Below are positions 528-32,200 of a stretch of 64,000 nt of DNA, piece by piece (within the stretch, counting starts at the first letter, position 1; the number at the start of each line of letters is the position of its first letter). Origin of the DNA: an uncultured Chloroflexia bacterium (GTDB taxonomy: Bacteria; Chloroflexota; Limnocylindria; Limnocylindrales; CSP1-4). The position numbers and the translations under genes were made by a program. The notes under the pieces are model-generated. The model did no database searches. It worked only from the letters and a program-made list of their open reading frames with translations, and was not told the origin of the DNA. The DNA lies in the NCBI GenBank assembly GCA_963819655.1, contig CAWFXA010000002.1, forward strand, positions 576,001-640,000. Reading direction: 5' to 3'.

Positions 528-1795
528 GGTCGCCGGGTACTTCGCTGGTCTCGAGCAAGGGTTTCGCACGATAGGGGTCGAGGTTCGGCTGTTCGACCTA
601 TCGGCGCAATCCGCTCGGCGACGGCCACGGTGGCGCGAGCGAGCGTCGACCGCAGCGAGCGAAGCTTCTTCGGTTGGGAAAGGCCCGGGCCGGGACCTGG
701 CGTCGTCGAACCTGGGACGCGCTTCTGCGTGTCAACCGCACAGCGCGCACAGTTCGCGCTTCGATGTTGCTGCCGGTCGCGCTCATTCGTTACGACACGT
801 TCATCCTGGCGGGTGGTGGCCTCTTCGCAGATGGACGGGAGGCTCTCGCTGCTGCGTCGACTCGGCAAGGATGTGATCGTGGTCTTCCTCGGATCGGATC
901 ACCGGCCCCCGTACCTGAACGGGATCTGGGTCCGCGACGCGATGGTCATCGGGTACGACCAGATCGCTCGGGACACCCTCACCATCCGCGACCGCGTCCG
1001 CCGTGTGGAGAGAGGATCACACCACCGTGGTCGCCCTGCCGGCTTCCGCGCAGTTTCATGACCGGCCCGTACGTCAATTTCCTGGCTATCGGCTTTCCGT
1101 TCGCGCCGCCCGATGAAGGTCATGCGCGAGCCCATAGCGCTGGAGACCGTGTGGTGGCGCTGCATTGCCCGACCAACCCAGCCTCGAAGGGAACAGCCGA
1201 GATCGGGACGCCATTGCCACGCTCCGCGCGCGCGGGCTGGACATCGACTACCGGGAGATCACGGGCGGCCTCATCAGGATGTCATCGAGGCGATCCAAGA
1301 CGCGGACTTCGTGATCGATGAGGTGTACCTGGACACCCCTATGGCAGGCTTCGCAACCGAGGCCGCGTTCTACGGACGGCCCGCAGTCGTCACCGGATAC
1401 TTCGCCCAGTCGCTCGAGCAGCTGGTTCCATCCCCGGTACCGCCGACCCTGCATGCTCGGCCCGAGGGATTGGTGCAGTCCATCGAGCTGCTGGCGTCGG
1501 ATCCCGCTTTCCGGGCCGACCTCGGTCAGCAGGCAAGGAAATTCGTGGAAACACGTGGGCTCCGTCTGACGTCGCGAAACGGCTCCTATCGCTCCTGGAT
1601 GGCTCGGCGCCAAAGCGGTGGTGGGTCGATCCCGATTCGGTGACGTACTGCCACGGTTGGGGAATGGACGAAACGCTTCTGATGTCCGGCCTCCGAGCCC
1701 TTATCGGCCAGCGGGGGTCAGGGTCCCTTGCCATGGATCATCGGCCTCTCACGAAGCGGCGACTGGAAGCGATGACGGAAGGGTCGCCGACGTGA
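496..1795 (+). CDS. Glycosyltransferase (GT4-like), split by several indels
   Basis: Pieces in different frames: MARRVFLGLTEVAGYF, DVIVVFLGSDHRPPYLNG, LHCPTNPASKGTAEI, ADFVIDEVYLDTPMAGFATEAAFYGRPAVV; stop TGA overlaps the next GTG. Confidence 0.6.
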
Positions 1796-2930
1796 CGCGC
1801 CGATCGATCCCGCTGGCCCGACCGTCGTTCGGTTCCGCGGAGCTCGAGGCCGTCCAGGCGACGCTTGACTCTGGGTGGGTCGTCCAGGGGCCACGCGTCG
1901 CCGCATTCGAGCAGTCCTTCGCCGCGATGGTCGGGACCGAGCACGCGATCGCCATGAGCTCGTGTACGACGGCGCTTCATGCCAGTGTCCTGGCCATGGG
2001 GGCCGGTCCCGGCGATGAGATCATCGTGCCGGCGTTCACGTGGGTCGCCACGGCGAATGCCGTGGAGCAGACGGGCGCGAAACCTGTGTTCGCTGATATC
2101 AGGCTCGATACCTTCAACGTCGACGAGGCCGCGTTGCGGAGACTGATCACCCCGCGGACAGTCGGCCTCCTGCCCGTCCATCTCTTCGGTCTCCCGGCCG
2201 ATCTCGATCCGATCCTTGACATCGCGACTCAGCATCGACTTTGGGTCATCGAGGATGCTGCCTGTGGGCTCGGCGCGGACCTTCGAGGACGGCACGTCGG
2301 GACTGCCGGGCAGATCGGCTGCTTCAGCTTCATCCTCGCAAGTCGATCACGACCGGCGAGGGCGGGATGGCCGTCACGGACGACGGCGGGCTCGCAGACA
2401 TCCTGCGCTCACTGCGCGATCACGGCGCAGAGGCCGCGGGTGTTTCGGATCTGCTTCCCTCGGCCATCATGCCGTCGTTTCCCCGCCTTGGTTTCAACTA
2501 CCGGATGACAGACATCCAGGGGGCCATCGGCTCGGTCCAACTCGGGCGTGCGAGTGGCTTCATCGAGGAGCGGATCCGCATCGCTCGTCGATACGACGAG
2601 GGTCTCGGCGATCTCGCTTGGCTTCGGACTCGATCGTTCCGCAGGGCTATAGGCACGCCTACCAGTCATATGTCCTCCTGGTGACCATCGGTGAGGACGA
2701 TCCCCCGATGGAACGAGCGGCCAAGGTCCGTGACGGATTCGATGTCGTGCCTCGAGCAGGCCGGCATCGGTTCACGGCCGGGGACCCACCACCACCACTG
2801 CACGATGCTCCAATCGCGAGCGTTACGGTATCGGCCGGAACACCACCCGCATGCTGGTGGTGGCCGAGCGATCGAGCGTGGCCGCTGAGATCCGGGGCTC
2901 TCCGAGGAGGACATCATCATGATCGGGACG
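1792..2930 (+). CDS. DegT/DnrJ/EryC1/StrS PLP-dependent sugar aminotransferase, frameshifted (end approximate)
   Basis: SGWVVQGPRVAAFE, SSCTTALH, PVHLFG, IEDAACGLG, HPRKSITTGEGGM, GFNYRMTDIQGAIG. Confidence 0.85.
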
Positions 2931-3830
2931 ATCGCGGGATCGACCTGGTTGTGGCAGGTACTGACGTGATCTCGGCTGAGACCGTCTCGTCGTTGGGTCG
3001 AAGGCGATCGGCTTGCAGTCCAGGGACTGTTCCGCGCGCGGAAGCTGCTTGAGGATGATTACCTGGATGATCTACGGAACTGCGCAGCAGGCTGCCGCCC
3101 TGCGCGCCATCGGGGTACGGTCGTGACGGTACTGAAAGGAGGACAGATCGAGGTGGACGTCTCGCGTCAAGGCGGACGCCGTCGTGGTCGCCGGTCGGCA
3201 CTGGTTGATGGGGTCGAAGCAATTGCGCGCCGACCGCACATCGGGATCGATCACTGTAGCTGCTTCGCTGTATCGAGGCGGTCACCGCTGTCCGGCTCCT
3301 CATACGGGTGATACCGCGTCGTGGAGAAAGCTGTCGACGTTGACCGATGAGATCGACGCGGAGAAGATCTGGGCACAGGGCGAGATCGACGTCGGCGACG
3401 AGCTCTCGTACATCGACCACGTCTCGAGCGATGCGACGGCCCCGCCGGTGACCTTCTGCCAGGCCTCGATCCACTGACGAGGATCGCCCCAGGATCGAGT
3501 CCGTGGCAACTTGGTGCGCTCCGCGGCGTCCCAGAGGACGGGCAGATCGATTGGACGAGTCCGGCCGAGGAGATCGTTCGATCCGTGCGTGCGCAATCGC
3601 GACCGTACCCGGGAGCGTTCATGGACCACGAAACGGTACTTGATCATGTATCTGGCGAGCGCGCCGCTGACCCGCCAATACTTCGGTAGACCCGGAGGTC
3701 TTGTTCGACTTGACGGGGCAGGTCTTCGGCGTCCGGCGGCGATGATCATCTCGTTGTCGTCGAGGAGTCAAGCGAGCCGATCCGCCCAGGTCTCGGTGTT
3801 TCTGATCACACGCCTGACGCGACATCCGAA
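2930..3830 (+). CDS. Fmt-like (sugar N-)formyltransferase, heavily frameshifted (limits approximate)
   Basis: ADAVVVAG.HW, SLYRGG, LTDEIDAEKIWAQGEI and, read by hand at 3522-3620, PEDGQIDWTSPAEEIVRSVRAQSRPYPGAF (Fmt C-terminal signature). Confidence 0.65.
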
Positions 3831-3892
3831 GGTCGCGACAAGTACCTTCGGTGCATCCGAGCACCGCGCACGCACCGCGTAGACTGCCCCAG

Positions 3893-5057
3893 ATGTCCAG
3901 CCCGACGCTGACCGCAGCCGCGCCCGTCCCGTTCTCGCAGCGGTGGCGCTCGGGTCTCCGGGTGCTGGCCGATGATCTCCGGTTGGACGCGGGGCTGATC
4001 GCGATCTTCGCTGCGTCACGGTTCCTGATCGTCGTTGCCGCGGTCGTTGCGGAGACACTCATCCCGCGTAATCCGGGGCTCAACCCCGGTGCCGATGGGC
4101 CGATCATCCGCAGCCTGACGAGCTGGGACGGGTGGTATTACCTCGGGATCGTTTCCGGCGGCTACCAGGCCGATCCCGTGGCCGGCGCCTACTCGAATGT
4201 CGCCTTCCCGCCGCTCTACCCGGCGCTCGTGAAGGTCCTGTCCTTGCCGTTCCCGGCGTTCGCGGGCGTCGTCGCGGTCGTCGTGTCGAACGTCGCGTTC
4301 CTCCTGGCCCTGGCTCTCCTCGTTCGCCTCGGCACGCCTTACATCGGTCGCCGGCGCGCGACTGTGGCTGCGGGTCTCCTCGTGATCTACCCGTTCGCGT
4401 CGGCATTCGCGATGGCCTACACCGAGAGTCTGTTCCTCCTGCTGATGGTCGCGTCGTTCCTCGCGGTCGAGCGCGGCCATCGCGCGTGGGCCGGTGTGTT
4501 CTTCGCGCTGACCGTGCTGTGCCGTATCCAGGGGCTCGCCCTGATCCTGCCTCTGGCGATCCTGATGCTGCGCCGGGACGGCTGGCACCCGAAGGCGTCT
4601 CTGGGCTGGCTGCTGCTCGGGCCGCTCGCGGCCGCGGTCTTCCTGGCGTACATCGCGACCGTGACGGGCAGTTCGACCGCGTTCCTCGATGCCCAGCAGG
4701 CGTGGGGTCGCGAGGGGCTGGGCGGCGCCGCGCCCGACGAAGACCCTCGGTGCGGCGTTCAGTCCGTACCTCGGCGCCCTCCTCATCACGTTGCTCGCGA
4801 CGGTGTTCCTGCTGGTCTTCGTGCGTGCCGACCGGATCCCGGTCGAGTACGCCCTCGTGCCGGTCCTGTTCATCGCCGCGGAACTGTCGAGCGGGTCGCT
4901 CGAGGCCGTCGGCCGGATCACGATGGCCGGCTTCCCGCTTGTGTGGATCCTCGCGAACCGTCGCTCGATCCTGGCACGCCGGACGTGGCCGCTGATCTCC
5001 GTCGGACTGTTCGTGATCGTCGCAGTGCTCTCATTCGGCGGGTACTGGGTGCCGTGA
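3893..5057 (+). CDS. PIG-V/GPI mannosyltransferase-2-like GT-C membrane protein (one frameshift near 4740)
   Basis: SWDGWYYLGIV, AFPPLYP, YTESLF motifs; many TM helices; C-terminus is in ORF 4689..5057. Confidence 0.8.
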
Positions 5058-5851
5058 CCAGCGGACTGACCCTCGTTCTGCCCGCGTTCAACGAGTCCGA
5101 GCGGATCGATCCGGCACTCGACGAGCTGTTCGGCTATCTCGGTCGGCGCGAGGGTCGGGGACGGGACGGCGCACTCGGCGCGTCGGCGCTCCCGGAATCG
5201 ATCGACGTCCTCGTCGTCGACGACGGGAGCTCCGACGACACCGCGGCGCGGGTCGAGGCGCGACCGGAGGCATCGGGCGCGGTGCCCGGTGTCACGCTGC
5301 ATCTGCTGCGCGTGCCGCACGGCGGGAAGGGCGCGGCGGTGCGGGCCGGCATGCTGGCCGCGGCCGGCGACCTGGTCATCTTCGCCGATGCGGACATGGC
5401 CACCCCGCCCGACCAGATCCCAGTCCTCGTCGGGGCGCTCGCGGACCACGACGTCGCGCTCGGGTCGCGGATCCAGGCGGACGGCTCCGACATGCGGGCG
5501 ACGCAGCCCGGCTATCGCCGCCTTCTCGGCAAGGCGTTCCACCTCCTGGCGTCGGTGTGGGTGGTCGGCCCGGTCCAGGACACCCAGTGCGGGTTCAAGG
5601 GGTTCACCCGGGCCGCCGCCCAGGACCTGTTCGAGCGTCAACGCATCACGAGCATCGTGTTCGATGTCGAGGTGATCTACCTCGCCCGCCGTCGCGGCTA
5701 CCGGCTTGCGATCGTCCCGATCCGCTGGTTCGACAAGCGCGGGTCGCGCATGCGTGCCCGTCCCGGGCTGGCGCTGCGAGTCGCCTGGGACCTGTTCCGC
5801 ATCCCGCTCATGCACCGAGGGAGCCGCCGCAGCGCCACCGAAAGGGCGTGA
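5054..5851 (+). CDS. GT2 polyprenyl/dolichyl-phosphate glycosyltransferase
   Basis: LVLPAFNE, VVDDGSSDDT, GKGAAVRAG, FADADMATP, DTQCGFKGF, FDVE; GTGA overlap with the upstream gene. Confidence 0.88.
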   Translation: MTSGLTLVLPAFNESERIDPALDELFGYLGRREGRGRDGALGASALPESIDVLVVDDGSSDDTAARVEARPEASGAVPGVTLHLLRVPHGGKGAAVRAGMLAAAGDLVIFADADMATPPDQIPVLVGALADHDVALGSRIQADGSDMRATQPGYRRLLGKAFHLLASVWVVGPVQDTQCGFKGFTRAAAQDLFERQRITSIVFDVEVIYLARRRGYRLAIVPIRWFDKRGSRMRARPGLALRVAWDLFRIPLMHRGSRRSATERA

Positions 5852-24624: not shown

Positions 24625-25257
24625 TTAGGACGCGCTCGGTGAGGCGCTAGCCGCCGGCGTGGCGCTCGGGGCGACCGATGGAGCCGCGCTCGGGCTTGCC
24701 GAACCGCTTGGGCTCGCCGATCCGCTTGGGCTCGCCGATCCGCTTGGGCTCGCCGAACCGCTCGGGCTCGCGCTCGCACTCTCGCTGGGGCTCGCCGACG
24801 GGGTCGGGGTCGGCAGCGGACGCAGGAGGCCGCCACTCCCCAGCAGGATGCCGTTCAGCAGGATGAGGACGAAGACTGCGACCGTCCCGATGACGAACCA
24901 CTTCGAAACGTCGTCCTTGACATGGACCGCGATCTCGGATGGCGAAGGCGCCCGAGTCGCCGGGGTGGTGGTGCCGCTTCGGCGCTTGGCCGCCGACGTC
25001 CGCCGCTCGGCCGCGGCAGGGACGGCCGCGTCACCGCCGATCTCGCGGACCGCGGCATCGTAGTCGTCGATGTCCGCCTCATCGGCCTCGATCGCTTCGG
25101 TCTCCGCCTCGTCGAGGAGCTCTGCCTCGATCGCGTCGGCGTCGACGTCGTCCGGCCGCTCGCCACCGTCGTCATCGAGCTCGTCATCGATGTCTTCAGG
25201 GTCGTCGTCGATCGGCTCGAGCGGTTCCTCGGGCGCGCCGTCACGGGGTTCGGTCAC
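24625..25257 (-). CDS. Hypothetical single-pass membrane protein with acidic N-terminus and Ser/Pro/Ala tail
   Basis: D/E-rich first 70 aa, one TM helix, (SASPSG)n tail; AGGAG upstream of GTG. Confidence 0.7.
   Translation of the reverse strand: MTEPRDGAPEEPLEPIDDDPEDIDDELDDDGGERPDDVDADAIEAELLDEAETEAIEADEADIDDYDAAVREIGGDAAVPAAAERRTSAAKRRSGTTTPATRAPSPSEIAVHVKDDVSKWFVIGTVAVFVLILLNGILLGSGGLLRPLPTPTPSASPSESASASPSGSASPSGSASPSGSASPSGSASPSAAPSVAPSATPAASASPSAS
24690..24800 (-). repeat. 18-bp tandem coding repeat (SASPSG, about 5 copies)
   Basis: gggctcgccgatccgctt-type units repeated. Confidence 0.85.
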
Positions 25258-25338
25258 GGGTGTGTCACAGCTCCTGGCGCTCGACGCGGGCCGTCAGATC
25301 TGGCGCCGCGGACGGGCAGCAGGATACCCGATAGCCGA

Positions 25339-27381
25339 TCAGGCCTCGCGGACCGCCGGCACGAACCAGCCCGCCAGCCCCGCCACCGCGGTGACGATGC
25401 CGAACGCCGCGATGACCGTCGTGACACCGATGACCTCGGCGAGCACGCCACCCAGCCCGATCGCCAGCGTCATCGCCCCGAAGACCAGGGAGAAGCGGAA
25501 GCCGATCACGCGACCGATGAGGTTGGGCGGCGTCCGCTCCTGGAACAGGGTCTGGCTCGGGATGATGAAGACCATGTTCGCGATGCCGATGCCGAAGGCG
25601 ATCGCCAGGACGACGCCGAGGTTGTCGGACAACGCCATGAGTGTCGTGAGCAGCCCGAGCACGGTGTAGCCGGCGATGATCATCCGGCCCTTCGCCAGCC
25701 GCGCGCCGATCAGACCGATCACGAACCCGCCGATCAGGTTGCCGGCACCCTGACTGCCCTCGATGAAGCCGTAGACAGCCTGCCACTCGAACCCCTGGCT
25801 GCCGAAGACGCGCTCAGCGAAGACCGCCGTCTGGCCGATGAGCACCCCGATCGTCAGCTGCGCGACGACCGCCTGTAGCGTGTTCGCCAGCAGGACCGGT
25901 TCGTTGCGCAGGAAACGCCAGCCCGCCACGAGCTCGCTGCGGAACCCGGTCGATGCCGGTTCGCCGTTCGCATCCTCGGTCGCCGGGCGCGGCATCGGCC
26001 GCGGGATCAGCGTGCTCAGCAACAGCGCCGAGGCGAGGTAGGTCGCCCCATCGAACCAGAACGCGACCGACACGGCGTTGGCGACCAGTGCGACGAACAG
26101 GCCGGCCAGCGGGAACCCGATGACGTCGGCGATGGTCTCGCCGACCCACAGCGCGGAGTTCGCCGTCAGGAGCTCATCCTCGCGGACGAGTCGCGTCAGG
26201 ATCGCGACCCGCGCCGGCCGGAAGAAGATCGAGATCGTGGTCAGCAGGAACACCAGCGGGTAGACGAGGAAGATGTTGGTCGACGCCGCGATCGGCATGA
26301 TCAGGACGACCGCCGCACGGAGGATGTCGCTGACGACCAGCACTTCACGGTGGTCCCAGCGATCGACCAGCGTGCCGGCGAGCGGGCCGAAGAAGAGGTT
26401 CGGCAGGGTCGCGGCGACGAACACGAGCGCGACCGCGATCGGCGAGTCTGTGACAACGAAGACGATCGCCGCGATGGCGACCTGGTGGACACGATCGCCG
26501 AACAGGGAGATGAGCTGGCCCGACCACAACGCGGTGAACGATCCATTCAGCGCGAGGCGGACGTACGGATGCCGTCGGAGCCGTGCCACGACCTCCGGGG
26601 AGAGGCGTGGGATCGGCAGCGTCGGCGCCGTGGATAACCCGGGCGCGCCACCCGTGCCCGGTCCACCGCCACCGACGGTCGAGGTCCCCGGCGCGGCCAG
26701 TTGTTGTCGCCCGGTGCCGAGGACGGTCGGTCGATCGAGCGCCGCGGATCGCTCGAGACCGGGCGTCAGGCCCGTGATGCCTCGCTCGCCCGCCAGTCGC
26801 CGCCGGAGCTCGGCGTCCTCCGACTCCTCGGTCGGTGTCGGGACGCGCACGACACCGGCAAACAGGAAGAACGCGAGCCCGAGCGTCAGGAACACGTCGC
26901 CGAGCGAGTACACGTTGCGGATGACAGCGACCGGCACGGGTATGACGTCGCCGAGGATCAGCAGACGTCCGAGGAAGTCGGGCGAGGCGGCATCGACGAC
27001 CGTGTGGAATGCCCGGTCGACGTCGGCCTCGGTCAGACCGGCCGCGACAAGGGCCGGCTGCCAGATCGGCATGAAGCCGTTGTTCGCGACGATGACCAGC
27101 GTGTTCGTCAGGACGCCGAGGAATGCCAGGCTGAGGCCCGGGTACGAGCGATTGACCCAGAGCGCCACGAGGAGCACGACGAACGCCGCGGTGAGCAGCG
27201 GCAGCCGGAATGCCTCGACGATGCCGATGTGCGCGCCGAGCGCCCACTCGGTGGCGTAGCGCACGACGACGGCGGCGACGAGCAGCCACGTCCAGCGCAG
27301 CTGGATCTCGGCGAGGTTCCGGAGCCGCCCTCCGGCGAGGAGACCGAGGACTAGCCCGAGCAGGATCCCGCCGATCAGCAT
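25339..27381 (-). CDS. DUF5317 domain (aa 1-178) fused to an MFS transporter
   Basis: N-terminal GGRLRNL, NTLVIVANNGFMP, LGDVI, VYSLGD; Gly/Pro linker; MFS motifs LWSGQLISLFGD, GTLVDRWDHREVLVVSD. Confidence 0.82.
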   Translation of the reverse strand: MLIGGILLGLVLGLLAGGRLRNLAEIQLRWTWLLVAAVVVRYATEWALGAHIGIVEAFRLPLLTAAFVVLLVALWVNRSYPGLSLAFLGVLTNTLVIVANNGFMPIWQPALVAAGLTEADVDRAFHTVVDAASPDFLGRLLILGDVIPVPVAVIRNVYSLGDVFLTLGLAFFLFAGVVRVPTPTEESEDAELRRRLAGERGITGLTPGLERSAALDRPTVLGTGRQQLAAPGTSTVGGGGPGTGGAPGLSTAPTLPIPRLSPEVVARLRRHPYVRLALNGSFTALWSGQLISLFGDRVHQVAIAAIVFVVTDSPIAVALVFVAATLPNLFFGPLAGTLVDRWDHREVLVVSDILRAAVVLIMPIAASTNIFLVYPLVFLLTTISIFFRPARVAILTRLVREDELLTANSALWVGETIADVIGFPLAGLFVALVANAVSVAFWFDGATYLASALLLSTLIPRPMPRPATEDANGEPASTGFRSELVAGWRFLRNEPVLLANTLQAVVAQLTIGVLIGQTAVFAERVFGSQGFEWQAVYGFIEGSQGAGNLIGGFVIGLIGARLAKGRMIIAGYTVLGLLTTLMALSDNLGVVLAIAFGIGIANMVFIIPSQTLFQERTPPNLIGRVIGFRFSLVFGAMTLAIGLGGVLAEVIGVTTVIAAFGIVTAVAGLAGWFVPAVREA

Positions 27382-27414
27382 CGCGTCATGATGCTGGAGC
27401 GGGCTTCGGCTTCG

Positions 27415-28816
27415 TCAGGCCTGCTCGGGTGCCTGGGAGGGGACCGGCAGCGAGCCGGTGGCGGGCGGCTCGGCGAGCCGCGTGGCGGCCGCCTGACCGA
27501 GAAGGGGGATCGGTCGCGGCTGGACGGTGCGCCCCGGATCCGCCACGCCTTCGACGTGGTGGGTCTTGACGAACGCATCGACCACGACCGGATCGAACTG
27601 GATGCCCGCGAACTTGCGCAGCTCGGCGAGTGCCTGCTCGGCGCTCAGCGGCGTCATGCGATACGGCCGGGCGGCGGTCATCGCCTCGAATGCGTCGGCG
27701 ACGTGCAGGACGCGGGCGAGCTTCGGGATCTCGTCGCCCATGAGGCGGTCGGGGTAGCCGGAGCCGTTGTACCACTCGTGGTGGTGGCGGATGATCGGCA
27801 GCTCGGGAGCGAGCTTGGTGACCGGCGCGATGATCTGCGCGCCCAGCACCGGGTGCGCATTCATGATCATCCGCTCGTCCTTGTTCAGCCGCTCCTGCTT
27901 CAGCAGCACCCGGTCGGGGACGCCGATCTTGCCAACGTCGTGGAGCAGGCCGCCCCACTCGAGCGCTTCCAGCTCGCCATCGTTGACATGCATCACGCGC
28001 CCGATGTCGACCGCGATCTCCTTGACCCGGTGGCTGTGCTTCGCCGTGAACGGGTCGCGTTTGTCCACTGCCTCGGCCAACGCGCCGATCGTCTGGGTGA
28101 ACATCTCGCGCATCTCGATGAAGCGCGCATACGCAAGCCGGGTTGAGTACAGGGGAACCGCGAATAGAGCGGTCGCCCACCATTGGACTGCGTAGACCAC
28201 AGTCATTAGCCAGGACAGTGGCGCCAGGGCGACAACGCCCCCGAGAATCCCGCGAATGTCACCAAGGAGCACGTCTCGAGGCGACTGTCCCGTTCGGAGA
28301 CCAAGTGCGATCGAGACGAGCACCAGATTGAGCGCGATAAAGAGCAGCGCGGCGGCCATGCCAGACGCGAAGTCCCAGGCAAGCCGCCCCCAAGGGTCAG
28401 CAGGACCTCACGCAGGGTCCCGGCGAGGATCGCAGGTACGACCAAAGCTGCGTGATTGGCAAGCGTCCCGTACCAAGGAATGCGACCTCGGATCTCGCGA
28501 AGTTCGGTTGTACCAATGGCGGCAACCCACCCAGCGACGGCGGGCCCGCCAAGGAATAGCGAACCCATGATTGGAGCAATCGCAACGGCCTGTTGCGTTC
28601 CACGAGGCAGCTGTACGGGGAAGGCAGACCCAATAGGGTAACGACAATCCAGTGACAAGACGCCAAGCGCGAATTCGGGAGCGGTTGGAGCGCCACTTGA
28701 GCCCGGAGCGCAATCGCGATCGCGGGCTTGGCGGGAAACAGAAATGTCGCGGCCACCAGCGCGAACGCACCGATGACCACGACGGTCGCGACGTAGAGCT
28801 TGAGGGACTTCGGCAT
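27415..28816 (-). CDS. Membrane-anchored HD-GYP cyclic dinucleotide phosphodiesterase (sensor part frameshifted; start approximate)
   Basis: DKRDPFTAKHSHRV, LLHDVGKIG, HHHEWYNGSGYP, VADAFEAMTAARPYR, GIQFDP; N-terminal TM sensor pieced from three frames. Confidence 0.88.
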
Positions 28817-28884
28817 CGTTCCTGGATCGGCCACCGACCTCACTCTACGGCCAACGCCGCGAGCAGGGTAATGGGCCATCCGTA

Positions 28885-28974
28885 CTAGAAGCCCCTAAGA
28901 GAAGCCCCTCCGGCAAGCGCAATCATCGCCACGCTCGTGAGCGTGACGATGATCCGCATCAAACGGACCTTCAC
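28885..28974 (-). CDS. 29-aa signal-peptide-like putative precursor MKVRLMRIIVTLTSVAMIALAGGASLRGF
   Basis: Read by hand: AAGGA 7 nt before GTG 28974, TAG at 28885-28887; basic N-terminus, hydrophobic core, LAGG, short polar tail. Confidence 0.75.
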   Translation of the reverse strand: MKVRLMRIIVTLTSVAMIALAGGASLRGF

Positions 28975-28984
28975 TGGAGGGTCC

Positions 28985-29014
28985 TTACCAGGCCTTCGCG
29001 GACTCGGGAGCCAC
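28985..29014 (-). CDS. Putative 9-aa upstream ORF MAPESAKAW
   Basis: AAGGAGG 7 nt before GTG 29014; its TAA overlaps the RBS (TAAGGA) of the 29-aa ORF. Confidence 0.35.
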   Translation of the reverse strand: MAPESAKAW

Positions 29015-29048
29015 GGACGTTCCTCCTTCGCGGCCTCCGTGCTCTGAG

Positions 29049-29085
29049 GAACACGAAAACCGACCTGACTACCAGTCGGTCGGTT
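29049..29085 (-). terminator. Intrinsic terminator forming the riboswitch expression platform
   Basis: Minus strand AACCGACC-GACtggtaGTCa-GGTCGGTT followed by TTCGTGTT; 5' arm is the aptamer 3' end. Confidence 0.55.
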
Positions 29086-29156
29086 GCACTAGTCGCTCCG
29101 CCGCACCCTAAGTGCCCATTTCAGGTGCGGCATCGCTGCGTCCGGTATTGACGATT
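29070..29156 (-). ncRNA. c-di-GMP-II riboswitch
   Basis: Minus strand CGGACGCAGCGATG-CCGCACCT-GAAA-TGGGCACTT-AGGGTGCGG-CGGAG-CGACT-AGTGCAACCGACC; carries the class II hallmarks TGGGCACTT and AGTGCAACCG (GCAC/GTGC pseudoknot); sits upstream of an HD-GYP gene. Confidence 0.82.
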
Positions 29157-29161
29157 ACTTC

Positions 29162-29179
29162 CTAGTACTGGGGTACTAG
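29162..29179. promoter_or_regulatory. Perfect inverted repeat CTAGTAC-N4-GTACTAG, candidate operator
   Basis: AT-rich palindrome immediately 5' of the riboswitch. Confidence 0.4.
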
Positions 29180-29242
29180 TAAGTTGGCCGGACTTTAGGT
29201 ATCCGCAAGTAGACCGGTCAATACGGCACCTTACCTATCTGT

Positions 29243-32200
29243 CTAGAGCGATTCGAGGGGCGGTGGCTCCACGCCCATCTCGTCCCGCATCACAGCGGCG
29301 TAGTGCGCGTACTGCTCCGCGGCCGCGGAATGAGCGCCCGTCACGCGATACAGCCGCAACAGGCATACCTCGATCTGCTCGGCAGTCGGATCAACTTCCA
29401 ACGCTCGACGCGCGATCGTGATGCCGCGGTCGTAATGGCCCGAGGTGAAATCGTCGAGGACGGAACGCTCAACAATCTCTAGGTACGTCGCATGGAGGGT
29501 GTCGCGATACGCGGCCGCCCATTCCTCATACTCAAAGTCGAGCGCGAAACGGCCACGATAGAGCTGCGTTAGGCGATCTACTTCGTCGGGGCTCGGTCGA
29601 CTCGGCAGGTCTCGAAGTAGGTGCCGGCACTCGACACTGCGGCTTGAAACCAGCTCCGAATCAAGCCAGACCACGTCCGAGTCGTGGTGCACATAGCCAG
29701 GAGAAAGGTCGTCGGAGTAGTTCTCTTCAAAGACTCGTCGTAGGAAGTAGACGTCTGGTTCAGGGAGTTGACCGCTACCTCAGGGTCAAGTTCGGGCCAC
29801 AGCGCATCAAGGACTTGGTCACGCGTGGCGATCAGATCGGGGCGCGTGATCAGATAGCTGAGCATGGCCAATACTTTTCGCCGGATTGCTGGAACCAAGG
29901 ACAATTCGGACTCCCGATTTCCAGCGAGATCCGACCTTGATCCTCTACTTTCACAGTATCCGCGAGCCGTCGCGCTAGCGAGCGACCCAAGATTGCCGCG
30001 TCCGGACGTCGGTCGGGCGGAACGGCGAGACGACGAAGACGTGACGATGTCGCTGCGATCGCCGATGGACTCGAGTAGCCGTGCCGCTGGCAGATTGAGA
30101 TCGCGAGTGTCCTGATCCAGCCCCTGACGAAGGGCAGTGCGCCAGCGGTCAGGGTGTAGGGCAGTCGTTTGAGGAGACGAGACTAAACGTTGCCGCCTTC
30201 AGGTTCGGCAGGTGTGGAATCAAATCCTCCGCCAGGAAGCTCAGGTGCCAAGGCGACGATTGGCCGATCACGTCGATGGTTCGATGAGCTCGTCGGGACC
30301 AAGAACGGTCGAAAGGAGGAGTTCGCCCGTTCGTCGGACGCCGGTCGCACCCTGTGCAGCGGCAAAGTCTGTCGAATCGCGCAGCAGTTGGTCGATCGCC
30401 GAGCGATCACCTCGGAGAAGCGCTAGGTGGGCCTTTGTCATTCGAATGCGGACGTGACACCAACGACGGTCGGGAGTCCTGTGGGAAGGCAGTCGACTCC
30501 CGCTCGCACCAGGTGTCGCGATCGCCGTATTGCCATTCTCGCTCAGCTAGGGCCAAGCTGCCGGCGGTCTGCGACTGTGTGGGTTGAATGAGTCACCAAC
30601 TCGATCGAGAACGTCATCGCGACGAGTCGGGACGCAGAGCGAGTCGAAGGCTTCGGCCGCGTCCGCGAAGGCCTCGGTGGGGATGTACCGCGAGGCATCA
30701 GAGGTCATTCCAGAGACAAGGTCAGTGCCTCTGGTTGCTGCCTTAGTCGCAGAAGGATCGACGCCTGCAAGGACACTAGCCGCCGAGTGCTCGATCGCCC
30801 CCGTCGTCCCTTCAAGGGCCTCGAGCGCCGCTTCTGCGGCCTCTTCGAGTGCGTCATCGGTTCGATCCTGAACGAGCGAGTTCAACGCGAGGTTGAGCAT
30901 GGTGACGCCGTAGTGGTGACAGCTGTCACACGTTGTACCTGTGCCATGGCGCGGAGTCGACGATTGATCGCGTCCAGGTCTTCTCGTCTTTGGACGATCA
31001 AGGACGATATCGGCGACCTCCGCTATAGCACGCAAGTTTGGGTCAGCTGTTAACGCGGCCAAGCTTCGTCGACCAAGTCCAGGGCAGTTCTCCGTTTCCG
31101 AAGTTGAAGTTGACGAGCGTGATTAGGTTGAGCAGCGCGTGGTCTCGCTGCATGGGGTCGGTGACGCCCGAGTCGAGGACGGCTTGGCTCGCGGTTATCG
31201 CCGCTTCGTAGTCGCCGTGCTGCATATCGACCCGGCTGATGATCAGGTCGAAGCCGGGCGGTCGCTCGTGCGCCGAGATCGGGCCGATGAACGCCTCGGC
31301 CAAGGCGTATTGGCCATTCCCCATGATCGTCGGGATTGCGCCGGCGACCACGCCGAGCATCGCCTCGATATCGCCCGCCTCGCGATAGTGATGTGCCGCG
31401 ACCTTCCAGTCGGTGGCAGCCGCGGCCGCCGCCGTCCTGCGGTGGAGTGCCGCGACGGCGTCGGGCCCGTCCATCGACCGAAAGCGCGCCTCGAGGAACC
31501 CGCGAACCAGCGGGTGGTAGCGCTGGTGGGTCCGCGGACCGCCGGACAGGCGGCTGAGTAGCGTCAGACGTTCTGCGGCTGCCGTCAGTCGAGCGACATC
31601 GGCCGAGTCACGGCCCGACGCGACTTCGGCGAGCTCCGGTGTCACCACCTGCAGGATCGAGGTCTGCATCAGGAAGCGCTGCAGATCCTCCTCGAGGTCT
31701 CCGACGACCTCCTCGGCGAGATAGTCATACAGCTCGTGGTCCGCTCCGGTGAGAGTCCGGACGAAATGGCGGATCTCGGCCGGCGACCGATCGCGCAGCG
31801 CCGCCTGGACGAGTTGGAGCGATGCGATCCATCCCTCGGTGCGCACGGCGAGGTCGGCGAGGACATCGGGATCGATGCGCCGGCCATACGTCTCGGTGAA
31901 CAGCTGGGCGGTTTCCGCAACATCGAAGCGCAGCTGGTCGGTGCCGAGTTCGGCGACATCGCCCACGGCGCGCAGCTTCGAGAGCGGGATCGCGGGCGCA
32001 CGACGACTGGCGAAGACCAGTGTCAGGCGCTCCGGCGCGCCACCTACGAGTTCGCGCGCGAGGTACCGGACATCTGCCGCATCGTCGACCAGGTGGAAGT
32101 CGTCGAATACCAGGGCCGCGCCGCCCACGGCGATCGACGGCAGCTCGCGAATGAAGCTCTCGACCGCTGCTTCGCGTGACGGGCCGCCGCCGCCGGCCAC

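Follow-up and report, generated by a model that had tools for sequence, protein, structure and literature searches.

The question raised by this locus is what the DUF5317 domain does in a protein in which it continues, in a single open reading frame, into an MFS transporter. The original prediction read the domain as an LspA-type (signal peptidase II) aspartic peptidase that processes a precursor, with the fusion linking processing to transport. The window, i.e., the whole 64-kb stretch of DNA that was analysed, holds the gene and its parts as follows.

25339..27381, minus strand: DUF5317-MFS open reading frame, 680 aa, with DUF5317, linker and MFS in a single frame
26848..27381, minus strand: DUF5317 domain, aa 1-178 (Pfam PF17248, AF2 model)
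26545..26847, minus strand: linker, aa 179-279, without a predicted helix family
25339..26544, minus strand: MFS part, aa 280-680, of DHA3-like efflux type (MFS_3 and MFS_1 matches)

In the Pfam search, PF17248 matched aa 25-173 over profile positions 1-150 of 151, scoring 88.3 bits (cut-off 25), and aa 280-673 matched both MFS_3 (PF05977; 88.1 bits, cut-off 27) and MFS_1 (PF07690; 86.6 bits, cut-off 33.4). The best NCBIfam match of the MFS part was TIGR00900, whose 185.8 bits lie below its cut-off of 319.6, followed by weaker matches to Mef, Tet(V), Tap and EntS. The linker of about 100 aa is abundant in Pro, Gly and charged residues (27 P+G, 13 K+R, 9 D+E). The motifs on which the peptidase reading was built lie where it had placed them, with GVLTN at aa 89-93, ANNG at aa 99-102, LGDVI at aa 143-147 and VYSLGD at aa 157-162; its numbering of N93, N100, D145 and D162 is correct, and the in-frame continuation from DUF5317 into the MFS is borne out by the Pfam matches on one ORF.

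Such a frame could also be produced if two genes had been joined by an assembly or gene-calling error, through a lost stop codon or a frameshift. Three frame breaks occur within 1.4 kb just upstream in the same window, and the codon-position GC signal is weaker in the linker (GC3 of 0.80 vs 0.91-0.93), both of which would fit an error of this kind. Against it, the frame survives linkers of varying length in hundreds of independent assemblies, and we regard the error as extremely improbable and, for practical purposes, refuted. The DUF5317 part is matched by 640 database proteins of 374-1190 aa, and PF17248 and MFS families occur together in 119 of the 120 such matches listed. A profile search with the Pfam model found open DUF5317-MFS frames of 660-753 aa in 12 of the 15 class genomes sampled, the remaining three consisting of one frame cut by a contig end, one genome with a standalone copy only and one without a match. 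The extended loci of seven relatives all carry single ORFs of 639-718 aa in which the frame is kept. In contigs from four public runs, none of the seven listed insertions or deletions falls inside 25339-27381; these contigs represent related strains, none of the runs containing more than 0.27 of the sampled words. Contigs from an RNA library (X17) align to stretches of the gene, differing at 1-3 letters per 150-240 bases, and are not evidence of transcription. The two partners also meet in other arrangements: one class relative carries a reverse-order fusion (MFS_3 at aa 13-203, DUF5317 at aa 510-645), and another family has MFS_3 as a separate gene immediately upstream of DUF5317 (loci L051 and L057). 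DUF5317 and the DHA3-like MFS exporter form a true fusion that is conserved across the class Limnocylindria; database proteins, class genomes, extended loci and related-strain contigs all agree on it.

The domain belongs to a family of 2588 cluster representatives at E<=0.001, is present in 48 of 151 sampled Chloroflexota genomes and, among control genomes, in Thermus and Thermotoga, and occurs in three copies in this genome. A literature search found no paper naming DUF5317 or PF17248. An alignment of 55 domains has a mean column identity of 27%, with G17, N93, N100, P105, D145 and G161 invariant and D162 present in at least 90% of the rows; once a row with a garbled C-terminus (P0323) was removed, D145 and D162 were both invariant (55/55). 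The full set of invariant or near-invariant columns comprises G17, G18, N77, G82, G89, N93, I97, N100, M104, P105, G115, D145, P150, S159, G161, D162 and G168, with no invariant Lys, Arg or Phe among them. As judged from the sequences, the motifs are more than chance. The four residues of greatest interest are encoded here:

27082..27105, minus strand: two invariant Asn on helix 4, N93 (codon 27103-27105) and N100 (codon 27082-27084)
26896..26949, minus strand: two invariant Asp with a spacing of 17, D145 (codon 26947-26949) and D162 (codon 26896-26898)

An AF2 model of the domain (pLDDT 95.6, pTM 0.87) predicts five helices, the last two joined by a strand-rich loop (H2-15, H31-49, H59-76, H83-99, E104-107, E126-129, E145-151, E154-159, H160-177). 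D145 is the first residue of strand 145-151, which pairs with 154-159 in a hairpin; D162 occupies the third position of the last helix (160-177). Judging only by the hairpin register in the secondary-structure string, D145 and D162 would lie close to each other. The N-terminus of an MFS transporter is cytoplasmic, so the linker puts the C-terminus of DUF5317 inside, and helix 5 would run from outside to inside; this would place D162, D145, N93 and N100 at the outer membrane face. There, D162 at the helix start, D145 in the preceding hairpin, and N93 and N100 in the outer half of helix 4 would together make up a polar cluster.

We compared this arrangement to LspA (MEROPS A8, PF01252; PDB 5DIR, 6RYO and 6RYP), likewise a small polytopic membrane protein. 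The LspA motifs cited in the original prediction hold among 28 Chloroflexota LspA sequences, in which G113, N117, V127, D129, N144, A146 and D147 are invariant, and the asserted similarity in Asp distance is also found, at 17 residues in DUF5317 (D145-D162) vs 18 in LspA (D129-D147), with the outward placement of the DUF5317 pair suggested by the fusion topology and the model. In the model of the genome's own LspA, whose canonical gene sits between ileS and rluD, helix 101-124 is followed by strand 127-135, which contains D129, and the last helix, 145-167, has D147 as its third residue. In both proteins, the first Asp would stand on a strand after an Asn-bearing helix and the second at position three of the final helix, with the pair at the outer face. 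LspA has four helices vs five in the DUF5317 model, and its strand-rich element lies between helices 1 and 2 vs in the last loop of that model.

Descent of DUF5317 from an LspA-type (A8) peptidase found no support in HMM, profile or fold searches. PF01252 gave no match on aa 1-178 even at E<=10, in the same search in which the genome's own LspA scored 124.8 bits. Alignment of the 55 DUF5317 domains to the 28 LspA sequences with hhalign gave a probability of 7.5% over 18 columns, pairing aa 8-25 with LspA aa 103-120, i.e., DUF5317 helix 1 with LspA helix 3, and the Asp motifs were not aligned. In the fold check, LspA was absent among the 26 Foldseek matches of the DUF5317 model and among the 50 VIA matches listed, a null that demonstrates neither a new nor a different fold; as a control, the model of the genome's own LspA found 5DIR, 6RYO and 6RYP at E 1.5e-12 to 6.6e-11 (best 5DIR, 1.5e-12). 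A PDB sequence-profile search with DUF5317 gave a chance match only, to a soluble carbamate kinase (E 0.016), and the ESM Atlas yielded no usable match. A true LspA descendant at the clan level would have to have gained an extra N-terminal helix and moved its beta-cradle to the last loop. Consistent with this, the last four DUF5317 helices would share their in/out order with the four of LspA, judging by the models and the fusion, the Pfam model of DUF5317 begins after helix 1, an Asn-bearing helix precedes the first Asp at a nearly matching Asp spacing, and the reverse-order fusion places the domain behind an MFS with a cytoplasmic C-terminus. However, the invariant LspA residues D33, K37, N64, G66, F69 and R121 (numbering of the genome's LspA) have no counterpart in DUF5317, the Asn helix and the first Asp are about 45 residues apart vs 12 in LspA, and the hhalign and fold results above do not favour it, so that we hold such descent to be very improbable. 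By HMM and profile, DUF5317 falls outside the LspA family; homology to LspA is not supported, and the remaining likeness is a local analogy.

With descent from LspA set aside, the genes around the fusion bear on what the domain may act on. They are listed here in the direction of transcription.

29246..30156, minus strand: BTAD-type transcription activator gene, frame-broken near 29752
29192..29221, minus strand: promoter-like site, TTGACC and TAAAGT spaced by 18 nt, lying 40 nt before the aptamer; one found vs 0.3 expected in shuffles
29071..29152, minus strand: c-di-GMP-II riboswitch aptamer, RF01786 (62.2 bits vs gathering threshold 53.5, E 1.8e-11)
29058..29081, minus strand: terminator-like hairpin from a consensus scan only, overlapping the aptamer 3' end; a possible expression platform
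28985..29014, minus strand: micro-ORF 1, 9 aa, GTG start after an AAGGAGG box, tail KAW
28885..28974, minus strand: micro-ORF 2, 29 aa, GTG start, with a basic N-terminus, a hydrophobic helix, AGGAS and tail LRGF, without Cys
27415..28816, minus strand: gene for an HD-GYP c-di-GMP phosphodiesterase whose N-terminal membrane domain is MASE9-like; the gene is split over three frames

The operon runs from the promoter-like site through the c-di-GMP-II riboswitch, micro-ORF 1, micro-ORF 2 and the MASE9-like HD-GYP gene to DUF5317-MFS as the last large gene. The RF01786 match is full length (model positions 1-84 of 84), and the riboswitch recurs upstream of the operon in 6 of 10 class relatives' loci. 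In the HD-GYP gene, the ORF at 27415..28359 scored 131.4 bits for HD_5, and MASE9 (PF20972) reached 17.8 vs a cut-off of 24.3 in the truncated ORF. A tblastn search with an intact 470-aa homologue placed aa 1-56 at 28810-28631, aa 56-129 at 28634-28413 and aa 143-462 at 28374-27418, in three frames. In the relatives' HD-GYP proteins, MASE9 scored above the cut-off in L066 (29.0) and L069 (32.0) and below it in L064, L065 and L072 (19-20), with no match in L063. The regulator is similarly interrupted, as tblastn with the L063 regulator recovered aa 71-204 and aa 205-373 in two frames. With both genes frame-broken, this strain may be losing the cassette, assembly errors being the alternative. 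BTAD regulators are neighbours of DUF5317 in 10 of 31 loci, and 12 of the 31 have an HD_5 or GGDEF-EAL gene no more than 1.5 kb away from it, a membrane HD-GYP in 11 and a GAF-GGDEF-EAL in one more. Within this genome, c-di-GMP enzymes adjoin two of the three DUF5317 copies; one copy (L002/L074) has neither a c-di-GMP gene nor a micropeptide nearby.

Both micro-ORFs are conserved in all seven aligned leaders, and in micro-ORF 2 an R and AGGAS are invariant (7/7). The KAW tail of micro-ORF 1 matches the KG[WF]-type tail of the relatives' micro-ORF 2. From its sequence, micro-ORF 2 looks like a signal-peptide-like, conserved precursor gene within the operon. A micropeptide motif filter, written post hoc after the peptides had been seen, matched 11 of 43 DUF5317 loci (182 kb) vs 0 of 30 LspA control loci (99.5 kb), and micro-ORF 2 was its only match in the window. 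The other 32 of the 43 loci had no micropeptide match, with short flanks and a strict filter; these and the L002/L074 copy weigh against a micropeptide-handling role of DUF5317. In other orders, similar micropeptides also immediately precede standalone DUF5317 genes, and no riboswitch is reported there. An NHLP-clan small protein, found near DUF5317 in other orders, was considered as an operon member and rejected, PF14407 (Frankia_peptide) being unmatched in the genome at E<=1. The LspA reading as a whole is only partly sustained: the fusion, the invariant Asp pair, its predicted outward topology and a precursor-like gene in the operon stand, and descent from LspA does not.

To examine a direct association, we used the DUF5317 domain of L066 with its 32-aa micropeptide in place of the window's own 29-aa micropeptide. 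The complex prediction scored 0.60 vs 0.01 for the best of three controls and was graded weak support, with contact agreement of at least 96% and partner pLDDT of at least 74 across the runs. In calibration, with counts that are only approximate here because our own alignments were used, 116 of 157 solved complexes reached the mark, as did 2 of 215 mismatched pairs, and scores of 0.60 or below came from only 18 of the 157 solved complexes, plus both mismatches that passed. The control partners possibly were not membrane helices, and unspecific helix packing could account for the 0.60.

Our preferred reading, tentative and rated as short of probable, is that DUF5317 handles, and perhaps cleaves, the micro-ORF 2 micropeptide at the outer membrane face, with a peptidase activity and a coupling of processing to transport as inferences. 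With its basic N-terminus inside, micro-ORF 2 would present the invariant AGGAS and its short tail at the same outer face as the polar cluster. The micropeptide would be bound by DUF5317 and probably cut near AGGAS by the Asp pair, whose chemistry and local geometry would be convergent with those of LspA, acting on a substrate that carries neither lipid nor Cys. The MFS would export the micropeptide itself, the short soluble peptide of micro-ORF 1, or something derived from either one. Expression of the operon would be turned on or off by c-di-GMP, on which the HD-GYP from the same operon would feed back. Several observations run against parts of this scheme. Sequence, profile and fold searches of DUF5317 found no similarity to any peptidase, which leaves cleavage as the conjectural part of the role. 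AGGAS could equally be a small-residue helix-packing motif, and a micropeptide inserted with its tail already outside does not obviously need an exporter.

The same neighbourhood can be read without cleavage. A complex of DUF5317 and the micropeptide may sense a membrane or extracellular cue and modulate the MASE9 of the neighbouring enzyme (HD-GYP or GGDEF-EAL) and, here, the fused MFS, with the Asp and Asn residues binding an ion or ligand; we consider this doubtful, though a serious contender. It draws on the c-di-GMP enzyme genes beside DUF5317 in the loci counted above, on the finding that two of 46 long family members are HD_5-DUF5317 read-through or fused proteins, on the MASE9 scores of the six class relatives (two above the cut-off, three below) and on the weak complex prediction, which fits a stable subunit as well as a substrate. 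A preprint on this domain describes MASE9 as a sensor whose unknown ligand probably binds within the membrane, and its passages on MASE9 and HD-GYP make no mention of DUF5317 or a partner gene (Galperin and Chou, bioRxiv 10.1101/2021.11.05.467447). Thermotoga maritima, from which the MASE9 prototype TM1467 comes, also carries DUF5317 among our control genomes. On the other side, an Asp/Asn cluster of four residues that stays invariant at about 27% identity is seen more typically in catalytic or ion-binding proteins than in scaffolds. Micropeptide tails that are conserved within lineages and common to the soluble micro-ORF 1 would be left unexplained by a pure membrane subunit, as would the recurrent tie to an efflux-type MFS in three arrangements.

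That recurrent tie, whether as fusion or adjacency, together with conserved acidic and amide residues in or near the membrane, would suit a small transporter, a channel or an ion-coupling accessory of the MFS, e.g., one offering a cation or proton path via the Asp/Asn cluster, with the micropeptides being unrelated regulatory leader peptides that belong to the riboswitch operon. We find this distinctly improbable, since most family members are standalone and away from an MFS (fused or adjacent in only 7 of 31 loci), the micropeptides accompany standalone DUF5317 genes in other orders where no riboswitch is reported, and the polar cluster, as placed by the AF2 model, would sit at one face rather than span the membrane.

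Handling of the micropeptide by DUF5317 could be part of something broader. We think it unlikely, but worth stating, that DUF5317 constitutes a new membrane aspartyl peptidase family, convergent with LspA, that trims micropeptides into oligopeptide signals at the outer face and that, with DHA3-type MFS, MASE9 phosphodiesterases, c-di-GMP riboswitches and BTAD/STAND regulators, makes up a c-di-GMP-wired peptide-signalling circuit widespread in Chloroflexota and present in other phyla. The substrate pattern in such a family would be a basic N-terminus, a helix, A-[AGS]-G-A-[PS] and a short tail. DUF5317 is a large family with no attached function and no structural relative found. Because the fusion to an exporter fixes its orientation, the invariant Asp/Asn cluster would lie outside, beside the conserved end of a co-encoded micropeptide, and the DUF thereby becomes a sharply testable hypothesis, as a new membrane peptidase or a peptide receptor. 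For MASE9, an orphan sensor domain, the locus supplies the first candidate partners, and it connects micropeptides to control by c-di-GMP.

Parts of the locus resemble several known systems. Among c-di-GMP-II riboswitch operons, the regulated genes here are two micro-ORFs, a c-di-GMP phosphodiesterase and DUF5317-MFS. Enzymes of the MASE9-HD-GYP or MASE9-GGDEF-EAL type are represented by the neighbouring gene, MASE9 being no part of the DUF5317 protein. The C-terminal 400 aa match DHA3-type MFS exporters (MFS_3 PF05977; Mef, EntS, Tap and ryptide export MFS in NCBIfam), but every NCBIfam match is below its curated cut-off, and a DUF5317 domain at the N-terminus is not part of the description of any of those families. 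The GxGD peptidases (A24) have in common with DUF5317 a small-x-G-D at the start of a membrane helix (SLGD162 in DUF5317); the Asp pair of A24 prepilin peptidases is cytoplasmic. The GxGD aspartyl peptidases (prepilin peptidase A24, PF01478) were rejected as relatives, hhalign against 20 Chloroflexota A24 domains giving a probability of 0.4%. LspA cleaves diacylglyceryl-Cys prolipoproteins at the lipobox; the candidate substrate of DUF5317 shares the signal-peptide look and the small residues at the boundary but has no Cys, so lipobox chemistry is impossible for it.

The pheromone systems of Firmicutes offer a further likeness. In Rgg/SHP and ComR/ComS, precursors 20-35 aa long begin with a basic segment, continue with a hydrophobic core and end in a short conserved tail; they are encoded next to a regulator gene, and their maturation involves the membrane protease Eep, the exporter PptAB and a TPR-type receptor. 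The locus would share with these a short precursor by a regulator gene that needs a membrane protease and an exporter. Processing and signalling are hypothetical here, and the components differ: DUF5317 is not Eep, the MFS is not an ABC exporter, BTAD/STAND regulators are not Rgg, and the operon described here adds a c-di-GMP riboswitch and a c-di-GMP phosphodiesterase.

The DUF5317 domain and the transporter that follows it are encoded in one open frame:

25339..27381, minus strand: DUF5317-MFS ORF, 680 aa, intact

Pfam places PF17248 (DUF5317) at aa 25-173 of the product (88.3 bits against a cut-off of 25) and MFS_3/MFS_1 at aa 280-673, and in NCBIfam the transporter part comes closest to DHA3-type exporters, with every match under its cut-off. 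The fusion, as proposed in the original prediction, is genuine, being borne out by database proteins, by the ORFs of relatives and by contigs of related strains. The DUF5317 part is matched by 640 database proteins of 374-1190 aa; among the matches listed, 119 of 120 have both PF17248 and MFS families, and their source names point to Candidatus Limnocylindrales, Chloroflexota. DUF5317 is present in 48 of the 151 Chloroflexota genomes sampled; open frames of 660-753 aa containing it occur in 12 of 15 genomes of the same class (the other three being one cut by a contig end, one with a standalone copy only and one without a match), and no long frames of this type were seen outside the class in that sample. 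In the extended loci of relatives the fusion is one ORF of 639-718 aa, the frame being maintained despite linkers that differ in length. Related-strain contigs from four public runs show seven insertions or deletions on 25300-29200, none within the fusion gene; the strain itself is absent from the public runs examined, the best share of words being 0.27. An artefactual fusion is thus extremely improbable. A contig of metagenome run X2 (depth 3.8) connects 25406 to 27361 through 7 other letters, a junction that would leave out nearly the whole gene; the contig may come from a foreign organism or be a chimaera. A scan of 46 longer DUF5317 family members found MFS domains in 23 and an HD_5 domain in two. 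The class relative L070 carries the reverse fusion (MFS from aa 13-203 onward, DUF5317 at aa 510-645), and in two loci of another family (L051 and L057) DUF5317 is directly preceded by a separate MFS_3 gene; the DUF5317-MFS link gains strength from these two independent arrangements. A transport or ion-coupling role for DUF5317 itself seems unlikely.

A library-wide HMMER search returned 2588 cluster representatives of the DUF5317 family at E<=0.001. In the fusion protein GVLTN lies at aa 89-93, ANNG at 99-102, LGDVI at 143-147 and VYSLGD at 157-162, exactly where the motifs had been placed, and they are conserved across the family rather than occurring by chance. An alignment of 55 diverse domains has G17, N93, N100, P105, D145 and G161 invariant and D162 retained in at least 90% of domains with row P0323 included; once that garbled row was removed, D145 and D162 are invariant in 55 of 55. 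DUF5317 therefore carries an invariant Asp/Asn cluster. The proposal that the domain is an LspA-type peptidase did not hold up. PF01252 gives no match to DUF5317 even at E<=10; hhalign of DUF5317 (55 sequences) against LspA (28 sequences) gives 7.5% probability over 18 columns, which pair DUF5317 helix 1 with LspA helix 3 and leave the Asp motifs unaligned; a profile search of all PDB sequences yielded only a chance match; and the LspA invariants beyond the dyad (D33, K37, N64, G66, F69, R121) have no counterpart among those of DUF5317. DUF5317 is therefore not a member of family A8. As a positive control, the model of the genome's own LspA (pLDDT 89.8) finds 5DIR, 6RYP and 6RYO with E-values of 1.5e-12 to 6.6e-11 and TM-scores of 0.74-0.86. 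This canonical lspA (176 aa, PF01252 at 125 bits) lies between ileS and rluD, and LspA is present in 40 of 41 genomes of the phylum sampled, a tally that takes in the unpublished genome G038, from which no sequence was drawn. Kinship with GxGD-type (A24) peptidases was rejected (hhalign 0.4%). By these sequence and model comparisons the DUF5317 domain fits no known family and no described system, and no fold relative was detected; the missing structural match is no proof of a new fold. A search of a literature library found no paper containing 'DUF5317' or 'PF17248'.

The fusion gene ends an operon, with these features in and ahead of it:

29246-30156, minus strand: BTAD-type regulator gene, upstream of the riboswitch, split over two frames with a break near 29752
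29192-29221, minus strand: promoter-like site, 40 nt upstream of the aptamer
29071..29152, minus strand: c-di-GMP-II riboswitch (62.2 bits against a gathering score of 53.5), heading the operon
29058-29081, minus strand: terminator-like hairpin overlapping the aptamer's 3' end
29014..28985, minus strand: micro-ORF 1, 9 codons, preceded by an AAGGAGG box
28974..28885, minus strand: micro-ORF 2, 29 codons, in which a basic N-terminus and a hydrophobic helix precede AGGAS and the tail LRGF
27415-28816, minus strand: HD-GYP gene, HD_5 at 131 bits, followed 33 nt on by DUF5317-MFS

Both micro-ORFs, which lie after the riboswitch and ahead of the HD-GYP gene, are conserved in an alignment of seven leaders, and each has a K-G-[W/F/L]-type tail in relatives. 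Micro-ORF 2 resembles a signal peptide, with AGGAS invariant and a Cys-free product. In 6 of 10 class-relative loci the operon is likewise preceded by a c-di-GMP-II riboswitch. The N-terminal membrane domain of HD-GYP scores over the Pfam cut-off for MASE9 in two of six class relatives and just under it in three; Galperin and Chou (bioRxiv 10.1101/2021.11.05.467447) describe MASE9 as a sensor whose signal is unknown. Compared with intact homologues of 462-484 aa, the HD-GYP gene falls into three reading frames, with breaks near 28632 and 28374-28413, and related-strain contigs have single-base insertions or deletions exactly at both (28382; 28633-28704, net +1). The G+C content of 28001-30000 is 0.61 against about 0.70, and the frame breaks fall within this low-G+C stretch; those in the HD-GYP and BTAD genes reflect either assembly error or strain-specific decay (pseudogenes). 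Downstream of the fusion by 81 nt, a gene at 24625-25257 (minus strand) has a product with an acidic N-terminus, then one hydrophobic helix and last a Pro/Ser/Ala-rich tail with SASPSG repeats; a PCMT methyltransferase gene comes next. The product matches no Pfam family. By eye, the ORF in the same position in a locus of the same genus (L064, 4018-4776) resembles it in starting with an acidic, Pro-rich stretch and in being rich in Pro/Ser/Ala at its end; tblastn gave no match between the two at E<=1e-3.

Across 31 DUF5317 loci of the phylum, surveyed with 1.5-kb flanks, neighbours include HD_5 in 11, BTAD regulators in 10 and GGDEF-EAL in one. In other Chloroflexota a small NHLP-clan protein of about 90 aa (83-107 aa) is often encoded directly downstream of standalone DUF5317 (L036, L038, L040, L041, L044, L050), often between it and the HD-GYP gene; NF038399 (Os1348 family) is over its cut-off in one of six and under it in five, PF14407 matches in L044, and no such gene was found in the window's genome. 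BTAD-type cassettes encode a micropeptide of the same build directly upstream of DUF5317, in which a basic N-terminus and a helix precede L-A-[AGS]-G-A-P and a 4-8-residue tail. A micropeptide filter matches 11 of 43 DUF5317 loci (182 kb) and a single site in the 64-kb window, against none of 30 LspA control loci (99.5 kb); as it was written post hoc, after the peptides had been seen, what the control demonstrates is specificity rather than an unbiased frequency. In L070 (G106:C3 1595-5398, minus strand) the parts are rearranged: HD-GYP comes first, then the 676-aa MFS-DUF5317 fusion, a c-di-GMP-I-GGC riboswitch, a micropeptide of 36 aa whose end is GAERKWGPF, and last a cNMP-binding protein. 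The window's genome holds three DUF5317 copies. The second (L073, G000:C1:503000-510500) lies at 4320-4916 (plus strand) after a GAF-GGDEF-EAL gene (1514-5083, plus strand), with a c-di-GMP-I-GGC riboswitch at about 4982-5059 (plus strand) just downstream of it and before an OmpR-type response regulator. The GAF-GGDEF-EAL frame continues some 900 bases beyond the EAL domain, where it overlaps the differently framed DUF5317 ORF, and may reflect a missing stop or a frameshift. The third copy has no neighbour of this kind.

MFS N-termini are cytoplasmic, and the linker between DUF5317 and MFS contains no helix. As such, DUF5317 helix 5 would run from outside to inside, and the Asp/Asn cluster would therefore lie on the outside, as in LspA. 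Two basic loops, GGRLRNL following helix 1 and NR following helix 3, fit an inside placement. In L070, where the five-helix domain stands behind an MFS with a cytoplasmic C-terminus, helix 1 may not span the membrane.

Our tentative reading is that DUF5317 binds the signal-peptide-like, Cys-free micropeptide, whose AGGAS and tail may sit at the same outer face as the Asp/Asn cluster, and probably cuts it with the Asp pair, that the MFS part would move a peptide or product outward, and that c-di-GMP would control the whole circuit. Complex prediction rated the DUF5317 domain of the relative L066 with its 32-aa micropeptide as 'weak support', at a score of 0.60 against 0.01 for the best of three controls; at least 96% of contacts are shared between the runs, with a partner pLDDT of at least 74. 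Of 157 solved complexes 116 reached the mark, as did 2 of 215 mismatched pairs, and scores of 0.60 or below belonged to only 18 of the 157 and to both mismatched pairs that passed; because we used our own alignments, these counts hold only roughly for the L066 pair. The predicted score fits a substrate and a subunit equally, and unspecific helix packing may also produce it. The main rival, a non-catalytic sensor complex that would modulate the MASE9 enzyme, is only slightly less likely than this reading.

Part of the original comparison with LspA stands, namely an invariant Asp pair similarly placed on a strand and at the start of the last helix; membership in the LspA family does not. In the LspA model, D129 is on strand 127-135, straight after helix 101-124 bearing G113 and N117, and D147 occupies the third position of the last helix (145-167). 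In the DUF5317 model, helix 83-99 bears G89 and N93, with N100 just beyond, D145 opens strand 145-151, and D162 likewise stands third in the last helix (160-177). Strands 145-151 and 154-159 look like a hairpin; if its turn has two residues, residue 145 would pair near 160, so that by this register D145 and D162 should lie close together. The Asn helix and the first Asp are about 45 residues apart in DUF5317 and 12 in LspA. The predicted in/out order of the last four DUF5317 helices is that of the four in LspA. We regard the likeness as local convergence or at most, and very improbably, as the trace of a true remote homology with LspA too distant to detect.
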